A DNA stretch of 64,000 nucleotides, taken from positions 34,961 to 98,960 of the forward strand of contig CAZYGH010000005.1 of NCBI GenBank assembly GCA_964647595.1. Direction: 5' to 3'. The translations under genes and the position numbers were made by a program. The notes under the pieces are model-generated. The model saw only the letters and a list, made by a program, of their open reading frames with translations, had not been told where the DNA came from and made no database searches. Source of the stretch: an uncultured Verrucomicrobiota bacterium. Lineage in GTDB: Bacteria; Verrucomicrobiota; Kiritimatiellia; CAIQIC01; Lenti-01. Below, piece by piece: positions 15,125 through 58,524 of the stretch (positions are counted from its first letter, which is position 1; every line of letters begins with the position of its first letter).

Positions 15125-16234
15125 ATGAGTTTGTCCCGTCCGATCCAGTTGGCCTTTTGCATCGACGATCGCTTTGCCCCTCCTCTCGCAACGCTGTTGC
15201 ACAGTTTGCAAACGCATTCACGCGCGGACCTGGGCGTTCAAGCCCATGTCGTCGGAAACCTGTCCTCCCCCATCCGCGACAAACTCTCCACCCTCTCTCG
15301 CCCCGATTTCGAAATTCATTTTCACACTCAGGTTCCCGACTTCAGCCACCTCCACATCAGCCCCATCTACGCCACCCGACTCAGCCAAGCCACCTATCAT
15401 CGATTGGCCCTCCCCGCCCTCCTCCCCAACGTCAACCGCATCTTGTATCTGGATGCCGACATGATCGCGCTGGACGATTTTTCCACACTGTGGAAAACCA
15501 ATCTTCAAGGCCGCTCCACCGGCGTCGTGCAGGACTACTTTTTGAGCCATCAAGAACGCTGGAAAGTCTTGAGCCTTCCGTTCCCTGAATATTTCAATGC
15601 CGGCATGCTCCTTATGGATCTGGATCAGTGGAGGTCTCAAACCATCAGCGAACGCGTCGCACAGGCCGTCGCCGAACATCCGAATTGGGAATATAACGAC
15701 CAAGACGGCTTAAACGTAGTGCTAAATGGCCAATGCCAATTCTTGGATCCGCGATGGAACGCCACGACAACGCGGCTCCAAGGAAATGCCGTTGACCACC
15801 CTGTTTTCATTCACTTCACCGGCCAAGAAAAACCGTGGCACGTTTCATCCGTCCATCCCTTTCGGGAAGCCTATCGCGAACACAAGCAGCAAACACCGTG
15901 GCGCGACGAACCCCTGACGCATTTTTTGGATCACGAAGACCAGCGCATCCTTCAATCGCTTCAGACTTCCCTTCCCCAAGGCGGCGCCATCGCCATCTAC
16001 GGATGCGGCGCACGGGGACGCCGTCTCGCCCTCTTCCTCCAAGCCCACCACCCGGCATTCTCCATCCGCTTCATGGTAGACCGAGCCGCTTCCAACGAAT
16101 GGAATGGAATCCCCGTCTATCGGCAACTGCCCGAGGAAACCCTCGACGCACTTCTCATCGCCTCCATTCCCTATCGCGACGAAATCCTCAAGAGCCTTCC
16201 CCCCGCCCTTCTGTCACAGGTCAACATCATTTAG
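15125..16234 (+). CDS. Family 8 glycosyltransferase with C-terminal Rossmann-like extension
   Basis: The GT8 DxD region RILYLDADMIALDDFSTLW is present. The C-terminal AIAIYGCGARGRRLALFL region has a GxGxxG-like motif. Confidence 0.68.
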   Translation: MSLSRPIQLAFCIDDRFAPPLATLLHSLQTHSRADLGVQAHVVGNLSSPIRDKLSTLSRPDFEIHFHTQVPDFSHLHISPIYATRLSQATYHRLALPALLPNVNRILYLDADMIALDDFSTLWKTNLQGRSTGVVQDYFLSHQERWKVLSLPFPEYFNAGMLLMDLDQWRSQTISERVAQAVAEHPNWEYNDQDGLNVVLNGQCQFLDPRWNATTTRLQGNAVDHPVFIHFTGQEKPWHVSSVHPFREAYREHKQQTPWRDEPLTHFLDHEDQRILQSLQTSLPQGGAIAIYGCGARGRRLALFLQAHHPAFSIRFMVDRAASNEWNGIPVYRQLPEETLDALLIASIPYRDEILKSLPPALLSQVNII

Positions 16235-28823: not shown

Positions 28824-28836
28824 TAGCATAAATGTG

Positions 28837-28908
28837 TTTTCCACAGTGTGGAAACATTCTTTCCATTGTGTGGAAAAATCGGGAAAAAGTTTTCCATTGT
28901 TTGGAAAC
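28837..28908. repeat. Composite palindromic triad element (copy 1): TTTTCCACAGTGTGGAAA, TTTCCATTGTGTGGAAAAA, TTTTCCATTGTTTGGAAAC
   Basis: Three roughly 19-bp inverted-repeat sites (9-bp arms around a central G/C) with centre spacings of about 23 and 30 bp. The same architecture recurs at 35724-35796 and, inverted, at 54324-54397. Confidence 0.85.
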
Positions 28909-30980: not shown

Positions 30981-32063
30981 CATATGGCACGCGTCGAACA
31001 TAGCAAAGAAAGCCGCTCTTCCCAGCTACGAGAAGCGTCCACTCACAATGACATTCCCGCGCGCAGTCACTACCGCCCGCCCAAACGCGTCATCACCGCT
31101 CCCCAGCCCAGCATCAAACGCCACGCCATCCGCCTGCTCATCGCCACTGCGATTGCGGTCCTGCTCATGCTGTCCCTGCTGATGCTCGCCGTTCAGTATG
31201 AAAAGCGGGATTGGAATCAAAAAATTCAACGCACCTGGGCCGCCAGTGTTGCCAAACCTTCCCCCGTGGTGGAAGAGCCCCAACCCGAGGTCATCGAAAC
31301 GCCCAAAGGGTGGACCTTCGAACTCCCTCCGACGGCCACACCTCGCCTCATCAGGCGACTGAACGCCGATCGTTTCGTTTCCAACTGGTGGCTCATTCTT
31401 GCCCGTAGCATAGCCGATCAACCCTATCCCGAAATCCAAGTGACCTGCCTCAGAATGGCCATGGCCATTAGCGGCGAAAACGCTGAAATTAAAAATGATC
31501 TGGGAGCCTTCTATCTCCAGCAACGTCGCATATGGGAAGCCTCCTCCCAGTTTTGGGGCGCCAATCAACTTCAGCCCGGCTTCGCCCCCTCTCGTTTCAA
31601 TCTGGCCCTGACCGCCATCGCAGACCGGAATCCCAATCAAGCCATTCAGTGGCTCGGCAACTATCTCGGCCAGCGCCCCACCGACACCACCGCCATCCGC
31701 CTGCAGGCCACCCTCCTCACGCAGCTTTCCCGCCCCGCGGATGCTCTGAACATGCTCGAAAAATTCCTGAAAAATCAGCCCTCCGATAATCCCCTTTTCC
31801 TAGAAGCCGCCGTTCTCGCCGCGCGACTCGACCAAAAAAGAAATGCCCTCCGCTATCTCGAAATATCCATGAATGGCAATCCTCTCCCCAATGTCATTCG
31901 CACCTATCAATCCGTTGCTTTCCGCGAAATTCGCCTCTCCGGCGAGGGCGAAGCCTTGGCCAAACACCTCGCCAACAAAGCCCGCGTCGCCTATAGCGCA
32001 CCCGTCCCCACAGAAGACATCACGCCCTTGCGCGCCACCACCACTGAGGCCAAAATCCGCTGA
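30981..32063 (+). CDS. Hypothetical membrane-anchored TPR-like protein
   Basis: One TM (LLIATAIAVLLMLSLLMLAV) followed by helical repeat-like segments. No catalytic motifs. Confidence 0.45.
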   Translation, partial: HMARVEHSKESRSSQLREASTHNDIPARSHYRPPKRVITAPQPSIKRHAIRLLIATAIAVLLMLSLLMLAVQYEKRDWNQKIQRTWAASVAKPSPVVEEPQPEVIETPKGWTFELPPTATPRLIRRLNADRFVSNWWLILARSIADQPYPEIQVTCLRMAMAISGENAEIKNDLGAFYLQQRRIWEASSQFWGANQLQPGFAPSRFNLALTAIADRNPNQAIQWLGNYLGQRPTDTTAIRLQATLLTQLSRPADALNMLEKFLKNQPSDNPLFLEAAVLAARLDQKRNALRYLEISMNGNPLPNVIRTYQSVAFREIRLSGEGEALAKHLANKARVAYSAPVPTEDITPLRATTTEAKIR

Positions 32064-32080
32064 CTTCTCTTGAGGAAGCC

Positions 32081-32207
32081 TCTTGAAACGCTCCGGCCAA
32101 AACGGTCGGGACGGAGCCCCACCCTCCAAAAATCAGCCAAAACAACCTATATTTCACCATTGGAGGGACGACCTCCGTGTCGTCCGTGTTCGTTTTGCAA
32201 GAGCCTC
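32081..32207 (+). repeat. Roughly 125-bp long-hairpin repeat element (copy A), MITE/REP-like
   Basis: Near-identical to 54848-54968. Internally an imperfect palindrome: cttg(c)caaaacgg...ccctccaa [loop] ttggaggg...cgttttgcaag. Lies between the convergent TPR and comEC genes. Confidence 0.8.
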
Positions 32208-34737
32208 ACGGACTCGCCCACAGCCGAATTCCCGTGTCCGGCCAACGGGCCGGGGCTCCCGCCAGCTCGATCTGAATCGTCCCCTGTCGATCGGTTCGCC
32301 ACACCCTCGCCCCTCGCAAAGCCACTCGCTCTACCGTCGTCTCATCGGGATGCCGCCCCTCCGTATCGGGCCCCGCGCTAAAAATCACCTCGCGCGGCCA
32401 CACCGCCTCCAACCAGCTCAAGGAGGTGGCCTCCGCCGCCCCATGCTTTCCCGCCACCAAGACCGATGCCGCCAACGAGCGCCCCCTGCCCTGCATCGCC
32501 TTTTCCTGTTCCTCGCCCGCATCGCCCGCCAGGACAATCGATCCCCCGAAGCGCGCCACTCGCAACACCAGCGAAGCATCATCCGCACGCGCCATCTTCA
32601 TCGACTTCGGCGGCCACAGCACCTCCCACACCATATGCCCCGGCCAATCCCCGCCATCCCCTTCCTGCAAGCGATGAATTGGAATCGCCTCCTCCTCCGC
32701 CCGTTCCACAATTTTCTTCATCAGCGGCGATGCCCACATCATCTCCGGAATCCACACCTCGCCCACATCCAGTTCATCCATCACACGCATCGCCCCGCCC
32801 ACATGCTGCGCATCCGCATGCGTCAAGACCAACGCATTCAACCCATTCACCCCTTCCGCTCGCAACAGCCGCAGCGTGTCTTCTGCGCGAAATTCGGAAC
32901 CCGCATCCACCAGCCCTTTCCACTGTTTCGCCTTCACCAGCACCGCATTTCCCTGCCCCACATCCAGCACCGACACCCGGCACCGATGCGCCTCATCAAC
33001 GCTCCACACCAACGTCAACAGCCCCAACAATCCCAATCCAACCGCCAACGCTCCGCGTATCCGCCGCGCCATCACCGTCGCAATCGATAAAATAAAAAAC
33101 CATACCAACACACCCGCCGCCGGTGGCGTGCGAACAAACCAATGCCCGCCCGGAACATCCGCCGCCGCTTGAATGCTAACCGTCAAAAAGGTGGCCACCA
33201 CGCGAGCCGCATGATTAAACACTTCCGAACAAAATCCGCTGAGCGGCGCACACAGCAAACTCATCACGCCCGCCAGCAAAATGGCAAAAGCGGACGGAAT
33301 CACCACCAAATTCATGACCAGCGCCACCGGCGAAAACAAATTGAAAAAGTAGGCCGTCAACGGAGCCGTGCTGACCCAGGCCGACACCGTCACCGATCCA
33401 TATCTCAACACCGACAGCGCCCACTCGCGCAACCGCTGGCCCACAGAATTTTCTGCCTCCGGCAACTGCCACGGGTCGTGGCGTGACATCCGTTTGAACC
33501 ACGCCTCCAGAATCGGCTGAACAGCCAGCAAACCCGCCACCGCCGTGAACGAAAGTATGAAACCCAAATCTCCCAGTTGAGTGGGCGATGCCACCAAAAT
33601 AACAATCGCCGCAACCGCCAGCGCGGAGATGGCATCCGGCCTGCGCCCCAGAAAAGGTGCCGCCAACAGCAACGACGCCATCACGCACGCGCGAATCGCG
33701 CTGGTCGCCGCCCCCGTCGTCACCGTGTACATCACCAGAAGCGGAGCCAGAATCAAAAACCACCGCGTCATCGGAACGCCAAAAGCCCGCAAAAGCCCCG
33801 CAAACAGCAACGTCATCATCCCGACATGCGCCCCGGAAATGGCAAAAATATGAACCGTGCCCGTCGATGCGAAATCCTTCCGCAACGACGCAGGCAAATC
33901 CTCGCGATACCCCAGCAACAGCGCCTGCAAAAGCCCCCGCTCTTCCGGAAAATCATCCAGCCCCCGCGCCAACACATCGCGACACATCCGCCGCCGCTCC
34001 ATGCACCACGCCACAAACGGATTCCCTCGGTTAGCATCCAGAAACGTAGCCCGGTCATAATCAATCACGGTCTGATTTTCCGGAAGGGTAAAAAGCCCGG
34101 CACGTCGCAACACCAACGGCCGAACCATCCCAAGCAATTGCCATCGCTCCCCATACTGCGGCAACCGGCATCCCTCCTTCCCCCCGCGCAACACCACACG
34201 AATCGAATCCTCCACCCGCCGCCACTGTCCATCTCGGTTCAACCCCTCCACACGCGCATGAAACACCGCCCCATCCGCCAACCCCGCCTTAGCCGGTCGC
34301 GGCACCGCATCCTCTGTCGCCACCACCACCAATTTCACATACTCCATCGGCCGCCCCATCAACGCCGCCAGCGACGCGTGGGAAGACCCCTCCACCGACT
34401 GCCTCGCATGCGCCGCCATCAACAGTAACGCCACACCCATCAGCGGAACCACCGATCCTTTACGTTGCACCCACACAAATAGTGGCAACAGCAACACAAA
34501 TCCCGCTCCCAAATACCACACCGAAGAAATCGGCACACAAAGCCCGATCGCCGTTCCCCCAATGATCGGAAACGCCAACCCCAGCATCGCCCGCCGACGC
34601 GGCGGACGAACCCGCCCCCTCGCCGACCGCATCTCCTCTTCCGGCCACCATTCCACAAACCGATCTCCATCGTGTTGCTCAAACCCTGCCCTCTTGTACC
34701 CTCCACCACCCCGCGCCGCAAGGCTCATCGCCACCAA
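32206..34737 (-). CDS. comEC: DNA internalisation-related competence protein ComEC/Rec2 (with C-terminal metallo-beta-lactamase domain)
   Basis: Three-part ComEC architecture: N-terminal DUF4131-like region, multi-TM Competence domain, and a C-terminal MBL domain (LVLTHADAQHVGG). Confidence 0.85.
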   Translation of the reverse strand: MVAMSLAARGGGGYKRAGFEQHDGDRFVEWWPEEEMRSARGRVRPPRRRAMLGLAFPIIGGTAIGLCVPISSVWYLGAGFVLLLPLFVWVQRKGSVVPLMGVALLLMAAHARQSVEGSSHASLAALMGRPMEYVKLVVVATEDAVPRPAKAGLADGAVFHARVEGLNRDGQWRRVEDSIRVVLRGGKEGCRLPQYGERWQLLGMVRPLVLRRAGLFTLPENQTVIDYDRATFLDANRGNPFVAWCMERRRMCRDVLARGLDDFPEERGLLQALLLGYREDLPASLRKDFASTGTVHIFAISGAHVGMMTLLFAGLLRAFGVPMTRWFLILAPLLVMYTVTTGAATSAIRACVMASLLLAAPFLGRRPDAISALAVAAIVILVASPTQLGDLGFILSFTAVAGLLAVQPILEAWFKRMSRHDPWQLPEAENSVGQRLREWALSVLRYGSVTVSAWVSTAPLTAYFFNLFSPVALVMNLVVIPSAFAILLAGVMSLLCAPLSGFCSEVFNHAARVVATFLTVSIQAAADVPGGHWFVRTPPAAGVLVWFFILSIATVMARRIRGALAVGLGLLGLLTLVWSVDEAHRCRVSVLDVGQGNAVLVKAKQWKGLVDAGSEFRAEDTLRLLRAEGVNGLNALVLTHADAQHVGGAMRVMDELDVGEVWIPEMMWASPLMKKIVERAEEEAIPIHRLQEGDGGDWPGHMVWEVLWPPKSMKMARADDASLVLRVARFGGSIVLAGDAGEEQEKAMQGRGRSLAASVLVAGKHGAAEATSLSWLEAVWPREVIFSAGPDTEGRHPDETTVERVALRGARVWRTDRQGTIQIELAGAPARWPDTGIRLWASP

Positions 34738-35690: not shown

Positions 35691-35723
35691 CCCGCCCCCT
35701 CGCGTTTTGTTGCGCCAAAAAAG

Positions 35724-35796
35724 TTTTCCACAGTGTGGAAAAATTTTTTCCATTGTGTGGAAAAACTGCGAAACATTTTTCCATTGTATGGAAAAC
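35724..35796. repeat. Composite palindromic triad element (copy 2)
   Basis: TTTTCCACAGTGTGGAAAA, TTTTTCCATTGTGTGGAAAAA, TTTTTCCATTGTATGGAAAAC, in the same order and spacing as copy 1. Lies between the convergent hypothetical and tolC-like genes. Confidence 0.85.
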
Positions 35797-54303: not shown

Positions 54304-54323
54304 AATCCGGCAAACCACCTACG

Positions 54324-54397
54324 TTTTCCACACAATGGAAAACTTTTTCTCGATTTTTCCACACAATGGAAAGAATGTTTCCACACTGTGGAAAAAC
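54324..54397. repeat. Composite palindromic triad element (copy 3, inverted orientation)
   Basis: TTTTCCACACAATGGAAAA, TTTTTCCACACAATGGAAAG, TGTTTCCACACTGTGGAAAAA: the reverse complement of the copy 1/2 order, with mirrored spacing. Lies between the convergent TPR and prepilin-like genes. Confidence 0.85.
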
Positions 54398-54400
54398 CAA

Positions 54401-54778
54401 TTAGGGCGCACTTCCAATCCACAGCTGCCGATTCGTTCCCGTCATGTCCCCACCCATCGACCACAAATAAAATGTCACCTTGGAGCTGTTTGAATACCCA
54501 TACGACATTCCCCACGGATCCATGAAGTTCGAATTCGAATGATTTGCAGCCGCCAGCGCTCCCTTCAAACCATCGATATCCGGCACCTGACCATATTTCG
54601 TTTGGTAATCCGTCACGAAACTTTCCAACTGGGTGACCTCTGCTTCCGCCTTGGTGCGCGCGGCCTTTTTCTGCGCATTCCCCGCCAACCCCAGAATCAG
54701 CGCGGCCAACAACGCAATGATGGCAATCACCGTCAATACTTCAACCAAGGTAAATCCAGCCCGATTCGCTCTCTTCAT
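54401..54778 (-). CDS. Prepilin-type N-terminal cleavage/methylation domain protein (type IV pilin/pseudopilin-like)
   Basis: N-terminus RAGFTLVEVLTVIAIIALLAALIL is the class III signal peptide/N-methylation motif. Start set at the internal ATG (MKRANRAGFTLVE). Confidence 0.72.
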   Translation of the reverse strand: MKRANRAGFTLVEVLTVIAIIALLAALILGLAGNAQKKAARTKAEAEVTQLESFVTDYQTKYGQVPDIDGLKGALAAANHSNSNFMDPWGMSYGYSNSSKVTFYLWSMGGDMTGTNRQLWIGSAP

Positions 54779-54847
54779 CGCATCTCTCCTTGTTTGGACT
54801 ATACTGCGCCATCCCCATGTCGGAATCAATCCCTCTCTCATAATCCG

Positions 54848-54968
54848 CTTGAAAACTCTTGCCAAAACGGTCGGGACGGAGCCCGACCCTCCAAAAACCT
54901 CAAACCAGATTGTTTTCGCCGTTGGAGGGACGACCTCCGTGTCGTCCGGGTTCGTTTTGCAAGGGCTC
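54848..54968 (+). repeat. Roughly 125-bp long-hairpin repeat element (copy B), overlapping the cutA 3' end
   Basis: Aligns with copy A over about 120 bp with few substitutions. The last roughly 23 codons of the cutA ORF are encoded inside the element. Confidence 0.8.
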
Positions 54969-55298
54969 TACAACCGATCCTTTTGTCGTCTCGTCGCCCA
55001 CCCATTGCAAATACGCTGCAAAGCCCGCCGTGACCGGAAGCAGCAAAATCTCGGGAACCTCGTACGAATGCCGTGCCCGGACGAACGCCTCCACTTCTGG
55101 ATACAGCGCCACTTTCGTTTTGATCAGCACCAAGACCTCCGAATCCCGCTTCACTTCGCCCTTCCACCGATACACACTTTGGATAGGCATCGTCTGAACG
55201 CACGCCGCCAATCGACTTTCCAACAGCCCATCGATCACGTTCTCCGCCTCCTCCGCATCGGGAAACGTCACCATCACAACACCCACTTCCGTATTCAT
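54900..55298 (-). CDS. cutA: Divalent-cation tolerance protein CutA
   Basis: The CutA1 pattern AACVQTMPIQSVYRWKGEVKRDSEVLVLIKT...HSYEVPEILLLPV is present. The C-terminal tail beyond about YLQWV lies within repeat copy B. Confidence 0.75.
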   Translation of the reverse strand: MNTEVGVVMVTFPDAEEAENVIDGLLESRLAACVQTMPIQSVYRWKGEVKRDSEVLVLIKTKVALYPEVEAFVRARHSYEVPEILLLPVTAGFAAYLQWVGDETTKGSVVEPLQNEPGRHGGRPSNGENNLV

Positions 55299-55343: not shown

Positions 55344-55360
55344 CTGTTTTATAAAACAAG
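55344..55360. promoter_or_regulatory. Palindrome CTGTTTTATAAAACAAG in the cutA/PiT divergent intergenic region
   Basis: Perfect inverted repeat TGTTTTATAAAACA, a variant of the 18-bp site seen at 55410 and 58463. Confidence 0.4.
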
Positions 55361-55409
55361 GTCCGTTTTCTTTGCATCCCCCGGGCCCCTTGCCCCCAAA
55401 AATGGGATA

Positions 55410-55427
55410 TAGTTTTATAAAACAATA
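55410..55427. promoter_or_regulatory. Palindromic site TAGTTTTATAAAACAATA upstream of the PiT transporter gene
   Basis: 18-bp sequence identical to 58463-58480. Both copies are preceded by the related cccaaaa(a/c)gg stretch. Confidence 0.45.
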
Positions 55428-55545
55428 GCCAAAATGGGGAAGGCTGAAACGAAAGAGTAAAACGATTTACTAATTTTCTTGCTCCTCCATCTCTCTCCGG
55501 CTACAGTGCGCGGGCAAACCCAAACCCTTTGTCAAAGGATAGATT

Positions 55546-58351: not shown

Positions 58352-58462
58352 TGAGGTGCCACCCTACCCGACCCGCCCTTGAAAATCAACCGCACGAAAC
58401 GGACATTTTTTGCCCCCCTACCCCACTTCCCTCACGAAAACCATCCCGCCCAAAACGGCTCT

Positions 58463-58480
58463 AGTTTTATAAAACAATAT
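58463..58480. promoter_or_regulatory. Palindromic site TAGTTTTATAAAACAATA upstream of apgM
   Basis: Identical 18-mer to 55410-55427, about 110 bp upstream of the apgM start on the minus strand. Confidence 0.45.
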
Positions 58481-58524
58481 CCCTTTTCTCCCCCTCCCCC
58501 ACCGACCCAAACAACGAAAAATGT

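Follow-up and report, generated by a model that had tools for sequence, protein, structure and literature searches.

A probable REP dimer with GGAG tags at the 3′ ends of cutA and comEC in a Verrucomicrobiota genome, and its relatives across PVC bacteria

Repetitive extragenic palindromic (REP) sequences and the REPINs built from them are currently regarded as lineage-specific and vertically inherited, and the RayT transposases that have been characterized recognize a GTAG tag. The families closest to the element studied here are the GTAG REPs and bacterial interspersed mosaic elements (BIMEs), which include the BIMEs of E. coli and families GTAG-1 to GTAG-24 (among them GTAG-17 to GTAG-20 of Opitutus terrae); the typology of REP dimers that we also see in our units was described by Di Nocera et al. 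(2013, PMC3733652), who also treat the CGTC REPs, a group that lacks any known dedicated transposase, while two inverted REPs form the unit of the REPIN-RAYT system of Bertels and Rainey (2011, PMC3116915). Here we analyze a 64-kb stretch of an uncultured Verrucomicrobiota bacterium (contig CAZYGH010000005.1; "the window", whose positions serve as coordinates throughout, with L numbers for loci retrieved for comparison), in which two copies of a palindromic element lie at the 3′ ends of genes, one of them within the reading frame of cutA. We read this element as a REP dimer of BIME/REPIN type, that is, a nonautonomous palindromic repeat of two 25-nt units about 30 nt apart, and we put the probability of that reading at roughly 75%.

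The two copies, at ~32077-32208 (copy A) and ~54843-54969 (copy B), occupy the same strand and lie at gene 3′ ends, as an earlier note on this DNA had said, and the ~120-bp alignment that it described was recovered by BLAST (32096-32201 vs. 54861-54963, 86.8% identity over 106 bp, E = 1e-19). Two 24-mer cores occur exactly twice each in the window and in none of 100 shuffles, and searches of the 64 kb with blastn-short and nhmmer --max returned no further full, partial, or degenerate copies. Each copy is an imperfect palindrome that nhmmer aligns to its own reverse complement, and both fold as a long imperfect hairpin with moderate RNA and DNA z-scores (-1.9 to -3.6). The extended palindrome described earlier is therefore present in each copy; the conserved structure, however, consists of two local 7-bp hairpins. 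The left arm contains a perfect hairpin of its own, GGTCGGG-ACGGAG-CCCGACC, and so does the right arm, GGACGAC-CTCCGT-GTCGTCC. Alignment of genome matches to the 18-mer core of the right hairpin defines a repeating 25-nt module in which an unpaired (T)GGAG tag adjoins a stem of 7 bp, GGNNNNN, closed by the loop CTCCGT or, in some units, CTCTGT. The CTCCGT loop is complementary to the GGAG tag, and among the matches listed, 180 of 208 units carry the tag as (T/G/C)GGAG. In both elements of the window, two such units stand head to head, tags inward, across spacers of 29 and 32 nt, and are enclosed by inverted outer arms of ~16 nt (GAGGCTCTTGCAAAAC ... GTTTTGCAAGAGCCTC). The same arms are recognizable in Kiritimatiellia (L062, L024, L046), UBA6015 (L077), and a metagenome-assembled genome (MAG) labeled "PVC group" (Planctomycetes-Verrucomicrobia-Chlamydiae; L108), and the arm GTTTTGCAAGAGCCTC was found at each of these loci.

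Covariation was scored in partner units near the core, which were anchored on tag and loop alone, with no requirement for pairing. Their stems are perfect over all 7 bp in 47 of 63 cases and contain a single mismatch in another 13, and two-sided changes occur at every one of the seven stem pairs (41 distinct partner sequences). Paired cells make up 91.6% of the total, vs. 65.6% in shuffles and 26-58% in controls with slid partner columns, and the covariation score is 0.595 vs. 0.165, a value that 0 of 500 shuffles reach. Stem variants follow lineage, with GGTCGGG in Lentisphaerae, Victivallales, and the window (where unit B1 of copy B is the lineage-specific partner), GGACCGG in Opitutaceae, GGACGGG in Chthoniobacterales, GGCCGTG in the VER2 MAG, and GGTCCAC in Rariglobus. 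Because the stems covary across lineages, the conserved and selected structure is the local hairpin of each unit (-6.7 kcal/mol as DNA and -10.3 kcal/mol as RNA), not the 125-bp hairpin, which follows from the presence of two inverted units. We also observed GGAG units with the loop TTCCAC or TTCCTAC (L149 640-699, L144 599-623, and L155 549-573), which pair with a CTCCGT-loop partner and adjoin GTAG REP clusters beside RayT; the family thus has loop variants besides CTCCGT and CTCTGT.

The history of copy B can be read from cutA. In the window protein, which has 132 residues, the match to Pfam CutA1 extends only to residue 102, whereas most of the relatives in an alignment of 19 are 105-111 aa long and lack the tail; the nearest of them, P0002 (85% identity, 107 aa), ends ...DETTKG where the window protein continues with SVVEPLQNEPGRHGGRPSNGENNLV. 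In the relative L120, cutA ends ...TTKG-TAG, and the junction reads AAAGGA-TAG-TTTTT-AGAGAGGG, vs. AAAGGA-TCG-GTTGTAGAGCCCTTGCAAAAC...CAAGCGG-ATTATG-AGAGAGGG in the window, which indicates that ~132 nt were added at the cutA stop codon. The order of cutA and the pseudopilin gene after it is kept in relatives, with an intergenic gap of 65 or 47 nt vs. 198 nt in the window. Since these syntenic relatives have an empty site, we infer that the C-terminal tail of CutA, residues 108-132, is derived from the insertion. The element would have landed on the TAG stop of cutA, so that translation would now continue along the outer arm and across one of the units until it meets a spacer TGA, a read-through that would add 25 residues. 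The proposal that the CutA C terminus is repeat-encoded is borne out in this comparison, with its size refined from ~23 to 25 residues, and the empty sites support the further proposal that a mobile hairpin element remodeled this terminus. A separate ~85-nt repeat containing GTTTTATAAAACAA lies just upstream of cutA (55346-55430) and recurs 3.1 kb away (58445-58500; families D12 and D13); it may represent a shared promoter or operator region.

Copy A sits exactly between the stop codons of two convergent genes, one encoding a tetratricopeptide-repeat (TPR) protein and the other ComEC. These codons are 6 nt apart in relatives (85%, 79%, and 72% identity) vs. 142 nt in the window, where both are intact; the junction was re-read by eye, MAFFT having misplaced the gap. 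Copy A had been thought to overlap the comEC stop, and it does abut that codon, but it neither supplied nor altered it, as the stop pre-exists in relatives. At each site the element is missing from the three nearest relatives, so the parsimonious account is that both copies are recent insertions of ~132-141 nt in the lineage of the window; the element would have entered two gene-3′ positions after this lineage diverged from relatives whose versions of these proteins are 85% identical. The two empty-site comparisons, at cutA and at ComEC/TPR, revealed no target-site duplication. A segmental duplication, which the earlier note named as a refuting outcome, was rejected: the flanks of the two copies are unrelated, the sites in relatives are empty, and the unit occurs in at least 100 loci of many PVC genomes. 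No GGAG units were found in the loci retrieved from the relatives, which at 2.5-7.5 kb each are too short to judge whole genomes.

We scanned 185,579 GTDB species genomes with the 18-mer core of the right hairpin and obtained at least 117 loci. Every one was found through the GGACGAC variant of the unit, so that the apparent universality of this variant is partly built into the search. Among the matches listed, the GGAG tag adjoins the 18-mer in 100 of 104 loci from PVC bacteria or unclassified MAGs and in 0 of 13 from elsewhere (Streptomyces, other Actinomycetota, Haloarcula, and others); by our own calculation a collection of this size would yield ~17 chance matches, and on both counts these 13 look like chance. 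The carriers listed within Verrucomicrobiota are Opitutaceae, Rariglobus, Nibricoccus, Chthoniobacterales, Terrimicrobiaceae, Puniceicoccaceae, and Akkermansia; beyond these are Kiritimatiellia, including the isolate Pontiellaceae B12227, as well as Lentisphaerae and Victivallales. Several assemblies contributed at least 3-6 loci each, the window itself contains four units, and an identical 24-25-mer unit is common to three PVC phyla. The module TGGAG-GGACGAC-CTCCGT-GTCGTCC is identical in Verrucomicrobiota, Kiritimatiellia, Lentisphaerae, and a family of their phages, is joined to partner units that differ by lineage, and is flanked by no dedicated transposase. This might reflect a recognition system conserved across the superphylum, an idea that we regard as doubtful; if correct, it would imply either a host factor or an unrecognized clade of RayT specific for GGAG, phages serving as vehicles, and a REP family with trans-phylum sequence constancy.

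Two groups of loci in this survey stand apart. The MAG JANYBP01 (isolate GL140_6_metabat_212) contains at least four near-identical homodimers (GGACGAC + GGACGAC) with longer outer arms (…ATTATGGCCTCTTGCGCAGGTCC…), which suggest a recent burst in that genome together with assembly breaks at the repeat. The dimer at L067 1950-2031 is the only tagged head-to-head dimer, among the matches listed, in a MAG not labeled PVC ("Candidatus Eisenbacteria", JALOPK01), and could be a binning error or a horizontal transfer.

The 184 units in the listed matches form 30 head-to-head, 35 tail-to-tail, and 2 direct pairs, with 58 singles; head-to-head spacers are mostly 29-33 nt, tail-to-tail spacers range from 2 to 79 nt, and the pairs are almost always heterodimers of a GGACGAC unit and a different partner. 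Genes around these elements were called with a codon log-odds caller, which reproduces the database annotation of the known genes of the window. In the same listed set, coding sequence makes up ~90% of the DNA, yet ~60% of elements lie between genes; the intergenic elements divide into 44 in tandem, 17 in convergent, and 10 in divergent gaps; as divergent gaps make up 29% of intergenic length, these promoter-bearing gaps are under-represented, and the overall preference is for gene 3′ ends, intergenic positions, and linkers. Another ~25% of the listed elements were called intragenic. In-frame units were confirmed with Pfam at interdomain linkers or termini of PurL, ValS (three units), MgsA, and a sulfotransferase (C terminus), and likewise in MetH, between the homocysteine-binding and pterin-binding domains, and in the linker between the lipoyl and E3-binding domains of the E2 protein of Akkermansia muciniphila. 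Read directly, the unit is free of stop codons in all six frames, which, together with these in-frame copies, makes the cutA tail one instance of a general habit of the family.

The unit is also present in phages. Its exact 24-mer occurs in 19 IMG/VR contigs, 16 of which belong to one family of phages (up to ~42 kb, GC ~0.60), and returned no matches in plasmid and GenBank phage collections. The phage unit lies in frame at the end of a small open reading frame (ORF; 131 aa) that adjoins a tail-collar fiber gene. To remove ascertainment by the unit, relatives of the 131-aa ORF were retrieved regardless of its presence; in the 73 usable contigs of this unbiased set the site is filled in 21 (15 exact, 6 with one mismatch) and empty in 52, the two states differing by an in-frame segment of 30-33 nt, i.e., a single unit. 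At filled sites, divergence from the consensus is 1.1% in the unit vs. 7.1% in the adjacent coding flank (Fisher p = 2e-9), where the fastest codon phase diverges by 13% and the other two by ~4%. This conservation would fit constraint, recent spread by recombination, or homogenization against host copies; under any of these the unit passes between chromosome and phage, a plausible path for its horizontal spread.

These data on gene context and phages bear most directly on an alternative that is compatible with the REP reading, namely, that the unit is mainly a functional hairpin, which host selection and not selfish copying would maintain, whether as a bidirectional terminator, as a block to decay of mRNA from the 3′ end, or as a binding site for a conserved host protein. 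BIMEs bind gyrase and integration host factor (IHF), and an identical unit in three phyla, a phage unit that diverges less than even the slower codon phases of its flank, and the preference for gene 3′ ends over divergent gaps would all be expected of such a hairpin. The distal hairpin on each strand is, in addition, followed by a short T-run and was flagged as terminator-like. However, terminator-like matches are no more frequent than in shuffles and the T-run lies partly within the outer stem; close genomes and phages lack the element at the same sites; many copies lie inside ORFs, where termination would be harmful; and the phage conservation could be due to recent spread or to gene conversion with host copies as donors. 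On balance, we consider it unlikely that host function is the main explanation. The inserted hairpins may still act as weak bidirectional terminators or mRNA 3′-decay barriers, and the role of 3′ stabilizer or terminator envisaged in the earlier note is no more than suggestive.

Returning to the REP dimer, we propose that a Y1/HUH RayT-like transposase acting in trans could copy the units on single-stranded DNA, and would recognize the tag, the stem base, and the loop. Two points suggest this mechanism, which we put forward tentatively and at somewhat less than even odds: in layout (4-nt tag, 7-bp GG..CC stem, 5-6-nt loop) the units match the GTAG REPs found beside RayT genes in Verrucomicrobia, and neither insertion has a target-site duplication. 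RayT is a large family in Verrucomicrobia (1,437 homologues, ~143 aa). Several observations weigh against the REP reading and, above all, against this mode of copying. A RayT, another Y1/HUH gene, or any other transposase is absent from the 64-kb window and from 116 of the 117 listed unit-bearing loci, a RayT profile search included. We examined the context of RayT in 80 metagenome loci of one RayT clade, in which GG-stem hairpins within 250 nt of the gene are overwhelmingly GTAG-tagged (170) and the immediate flanks are GTAG REPs and never GGAG units, so that the link that defines a REPtron is missing; GGAG units occur only further out, beyond the GTAG REPs, in five of the 80 loci, sometimes in the same REP clusters. 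The tag is GGAG and not GTAG, and only two dimers occur in 64 kb of the source genome. The phage insertion or deletion involves a single unit, which misfits the REPIN model with its mobile dimer. Finally, the IS200/IS605 family has a known lagging-strand bias, and the orientation of our units is not significantly biased with respect to GC skew (58:44).

Candidate sources of a transposase were considered individually. The only Y1/HUH gene among the 117 listed loci, the RayT (Pfam Y1_Tnp) at L027 4990-5700, was rejected as the cognate enzyme because it is bracketed by a different REP, GTAG-GGCAAGC-loop-GCTTGCC, as in the 80 metagenome RayT loci. In L017, two inverted pairs 3 kb apart resemble a REPtron, which was discounted as the genes between them are ordinary (gamma-glutamyltranspeptidase-like and pyridoxal phosphate (PLP)-enzyme-like ORFs) and include no transposase. 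The GTAG-REP-bracketed RayT genes of the soil metagenomes (L124-L203) are textbook REPtrons in their own right.

A different mobile origin was implied by the label MITE/REP-like in the earlier note, whose REP half holds for a BIME/REPIN-like dimer. The other half would make the element a classical miniature inverted-repeat transposable element (MITE) derived from a DDE insertion sequence, with the arms GAGGCTCTTGCAAAAC as terminal inverted repeats and the REP units as passengers. The conservation of the outer inverted arms in Kiritimatiellia, UBA6015, and the window is in keeping with that origin, as is the apparent burst in JANYBP01, where some of the copies lie at contig ends. The lack of target-site duplications speaks against a classical MITE; nor did an insertion sequence whose ends match turn up, although no collection search for GAGGCTCTTGCAAAAC termini was made; the units are far more widespread than the arms and occur alone or tail-to-tail without them; and a single unit is the segment inserted or deleted in phages. 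We therefore judge a MITE origin improbable.

Still less probable is a structured noncoding or cis-regulatory RNA encoded on one strand, such as a small RNA, a riboswitch, or a processing signal. In its favor, the hairpins covary, and the loops of the two units are mutually complementary; a four-way junction, with an outer stem, the two local hairpins, and an inner stem, lies above the long-hairpin minimum free energy by only ~2 kcal/mol with RNA parameters (~4 kcal/mol with DNA parameters). Orientation relative to transcription shows a slight sense excess when intergenic and intragenic copies are pooled (37:20). In tandem gaps, however, it is not significantly biased (23:14, p = 0.19), which speaks against an RNA gene confined to one strand; single units, dimers of either polarity, and units in ORFs on both strands all occur, and the presence of units varies among near relatives. 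Rfam gave no matches in the window at the gathering threshold, and the lone permissive hit, mir-85 at 22 bits vs. a gathering score of 68, is spurious.

Least probable of all is a signal for site-specific recombination or DNA uptake (integron attC-like, Xer/dif-like, or a DNA uptake sequence), to which one might be drawn because both window copies adjoin competence or pilus-type genes (comEC and the pseudopilin gene) and the hairpins, like attC sites, could form in single-stranded DNA, but which has to contend with a lack of cassette arrays and integrase, unrelated neighborhoods at ~100 other listed loci (ggt, metH, purL, valS, and others), relatives that retain the same competence genes without the element, and a density of ~1 dimer per 32 kb, known uptake sequences being far denser.

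The coordinates of the features discussed are collected in the table below. A further palindromic repeat in the window, unrelated to the first, is made of the 22-nt unit (G)TTTTCCACAGTGTGGAAA(A), which recurs two or three times per array at a spacing of 22 or 31 nt. At least two of the three arrays, the second and third in the table, lie in gaps between convergent genes, and two of the units were flagged as terminator-like; the arrays may serve as operators or as terminators that act in both directions. Over positions 1-64000 each 2-kb bin has a negative GC skew (-0.02 to -0.38), with a steady fall in cumulative skew, which places the whole window on a single replichore; the asymmetry between its strands is unusually strong. 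Shadow ORFs that arise from it mislead simple ORF-based gene calling.

Table 1. Positions of the repeat copies, their units, the adjoining genes, and related loci (window coordinates unless an L number is given)
Feature	Position	Strand	Basis or remark
TPR-repeat gene, convergent with comEC	30984..32063	+	Stop 32061-32063
Copy A, insertion footprint	32064..32204	+	Between convergent TPR and ComEC stops; empty sites in relatives
Unit A1, partner unit, one stem mismatch (GGTGGGG/CCCGACC)	32104..32128	-	Unit scan
Unit A2, GGACGAC master unit, identical to B2	32161..32185	+	Core counts and unit scan
Right outer arm of copy A, GTGTTCGTTTTGCAAGAGCCTCA	32186..32208	+	Final bases are the pre-existing ComEC stop
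comEC (Competence, DUF4131, Lactamase_B domains)	32206..34587	-	Stop 32206-32208 preserved
Type II secretion pseudopilin gene (N_methyl, T2SSG domains), downstream of cutA	54401..54778	-	Syntenic in relatives
Copy B, insertion footprint (outer arms and head-to-head REP dimer)	54845..54976	+	Empty-site alignment with syntenic L120 and L121
Unit B1, TGGAG tag, stem GGTCGGG/CCCGACC, loop CTCCGT (minus-strand reading)	54869..54893	-	Scan; covariation
Spacer between B1 and B2 tags, 29 nt	54894..54922		Holds the TGA now ending cutA (54900-54902, minus)
Unit B2, TGGAG tag, stem GGACGAC/GTCGTCC, loop CTCCGT, widely shared "master" unit	54923..54947	+	
cutA ORF	54900-55298	-	Runs into copy B
Insertion-derived cutA 3′ end, 25 codons (SVVEPLQNEPGRHGGRPSNGENNLV) and stop	54900..54977	-	Alignment with 19 relatives; Pfam end
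Ancestral cutA coding region, residues 1-107	54978..55298	-	Pfam CutA1 E = 1e-35; homologues
TTTTCCACAGTGTGGAAA arrays	28833-28907, 35720-35794, 54320-54394		Single copy at 15475-15496
JANYBP01 homodimer copies	L038 3971-4051, L113 25-105, L095, L103		Some at contig ends
Phage loci	L225-L298, e.g. L211 11466-11861		IMG/VR

The cutA site offers a clean, dated case in which a palindromic repeat has rewritten a protein C terminus, with the ancestral stop visible in a relative of 85% identity. The remodeling of CutA is well documented in these data, yet remodeling of this sort is ordinary for this class of repeat, and the family-level features, above all the identity of one unit across phyla and its presence in phages, are the more notable. 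The family also enters linkers of essential enzymes (PurL, ValS, MetH, and E2) in frame and in this way repeatedly alters protein length by small amounts in PVC bacteria. It may further serve as a test case for what copies REPs without a RAYT, a question shared with the CGTC REPs, and for whether REPs persist purely as selfish DNA or a conserved host factor reads them. In practical terms, these repeats break MAG assemblies and inflate ORF calls, and recognizing them improves the annotation of PVC genomes.

Among known repeats, the Neisseria Correia elements (CREE/NEMIS), compared here by their generally known features, are ~100-155 bp long with inverted ends and no known transposase, lie at gene ends, and are co-transcribed as long hairpins. 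They share with our element the inverted ends and the gene-end positions but differ in having a TA target-site duplication and IHF and promoter motifs and in not being built of REPs. The Rickettsia palindromic element RPE-1 is similar in that in-frame palindromic insertions add peptide segments without destroying the host protein; RPE-1 is longer and confined to Rickettsia, whereas GGAG copies are mostly intergenic. CGTC REPs, which include RPE-4 and RPE-6 of Rickettsia (PMC3733652), resemble GGAG units in lacking a dedicated transposase gene, in occurring in several phyla, in frequent head-to-head dimers, and in copies that lie in frame in genes; they differ in 8-9-bp stems that start with A/T pairs, 4-5-nt loops, and a CCA tail.

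With REPIN-RAYT systems (PMC3116915) the element shares two inverted REPs and a spacer that form a hairpin of ~100-130 nt, a nonautonomous character, the absence of target-site duplication, and presence or absence between related genomes. Both window insertions are whole dimers with arms, whereas the phage polymorphism involves a single unit of 30-33 nt, which appears to be the inserted segment there, and the units spread far beyond one lineage. REPINs have a cognate, single-copy RAYT that they flank; GGAG units flank none in the window, the listed unit loci, or the 80 RayT loci of one clade.

The closest likeness is to the GTAG REPs (PMC3733652). Both are palindromes of 20-40 nt with an unpaired 4-nt end tag, a 5-13-bp stem, and a short loop; both commonly pair head to head or tail to tail and rarely in direct orientation, favor unlike partners, and keep the spacer constant in head-to-head pairs while it varies in tail-to-tail ones. 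In each, longer palindromes enclose some of the dimers, and most copies lie between genes, with some in frame within them. The GGAG tag has the position and length of GTAG but is neither GTAG nor CGTC, the tags by which REPs are defined, nor any of the listed variants GYAG, GYRG, GTRG, GTMG, and GTGG (PMC3733652). Identity with a published family was considered and rejected, as the intragenic REP peptides of O. terrae and Rhodopirellula baltica (PMC3733652 supplement) match none of the six frames of the unit. The sequence of the unit is absent from the searchable literature, and keyword searches returned nothing on PVC bacteria beyond PMC3733652. Peculiar to the GGAG unit are the complementarity of its CTCCGT loop to the tag and its identity across phyla, GTAG families being mostly species- or genus-specific. 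In structure, the element corresponds to a REP unit (a 20-40-nt stem-loop palindrome), to an inverted REP dimer, and to a REPIN-like long hairpin, and the GGAG-tagged repeats are a new family of a known kind, that of the REPs, BIMEs, and REPINs.

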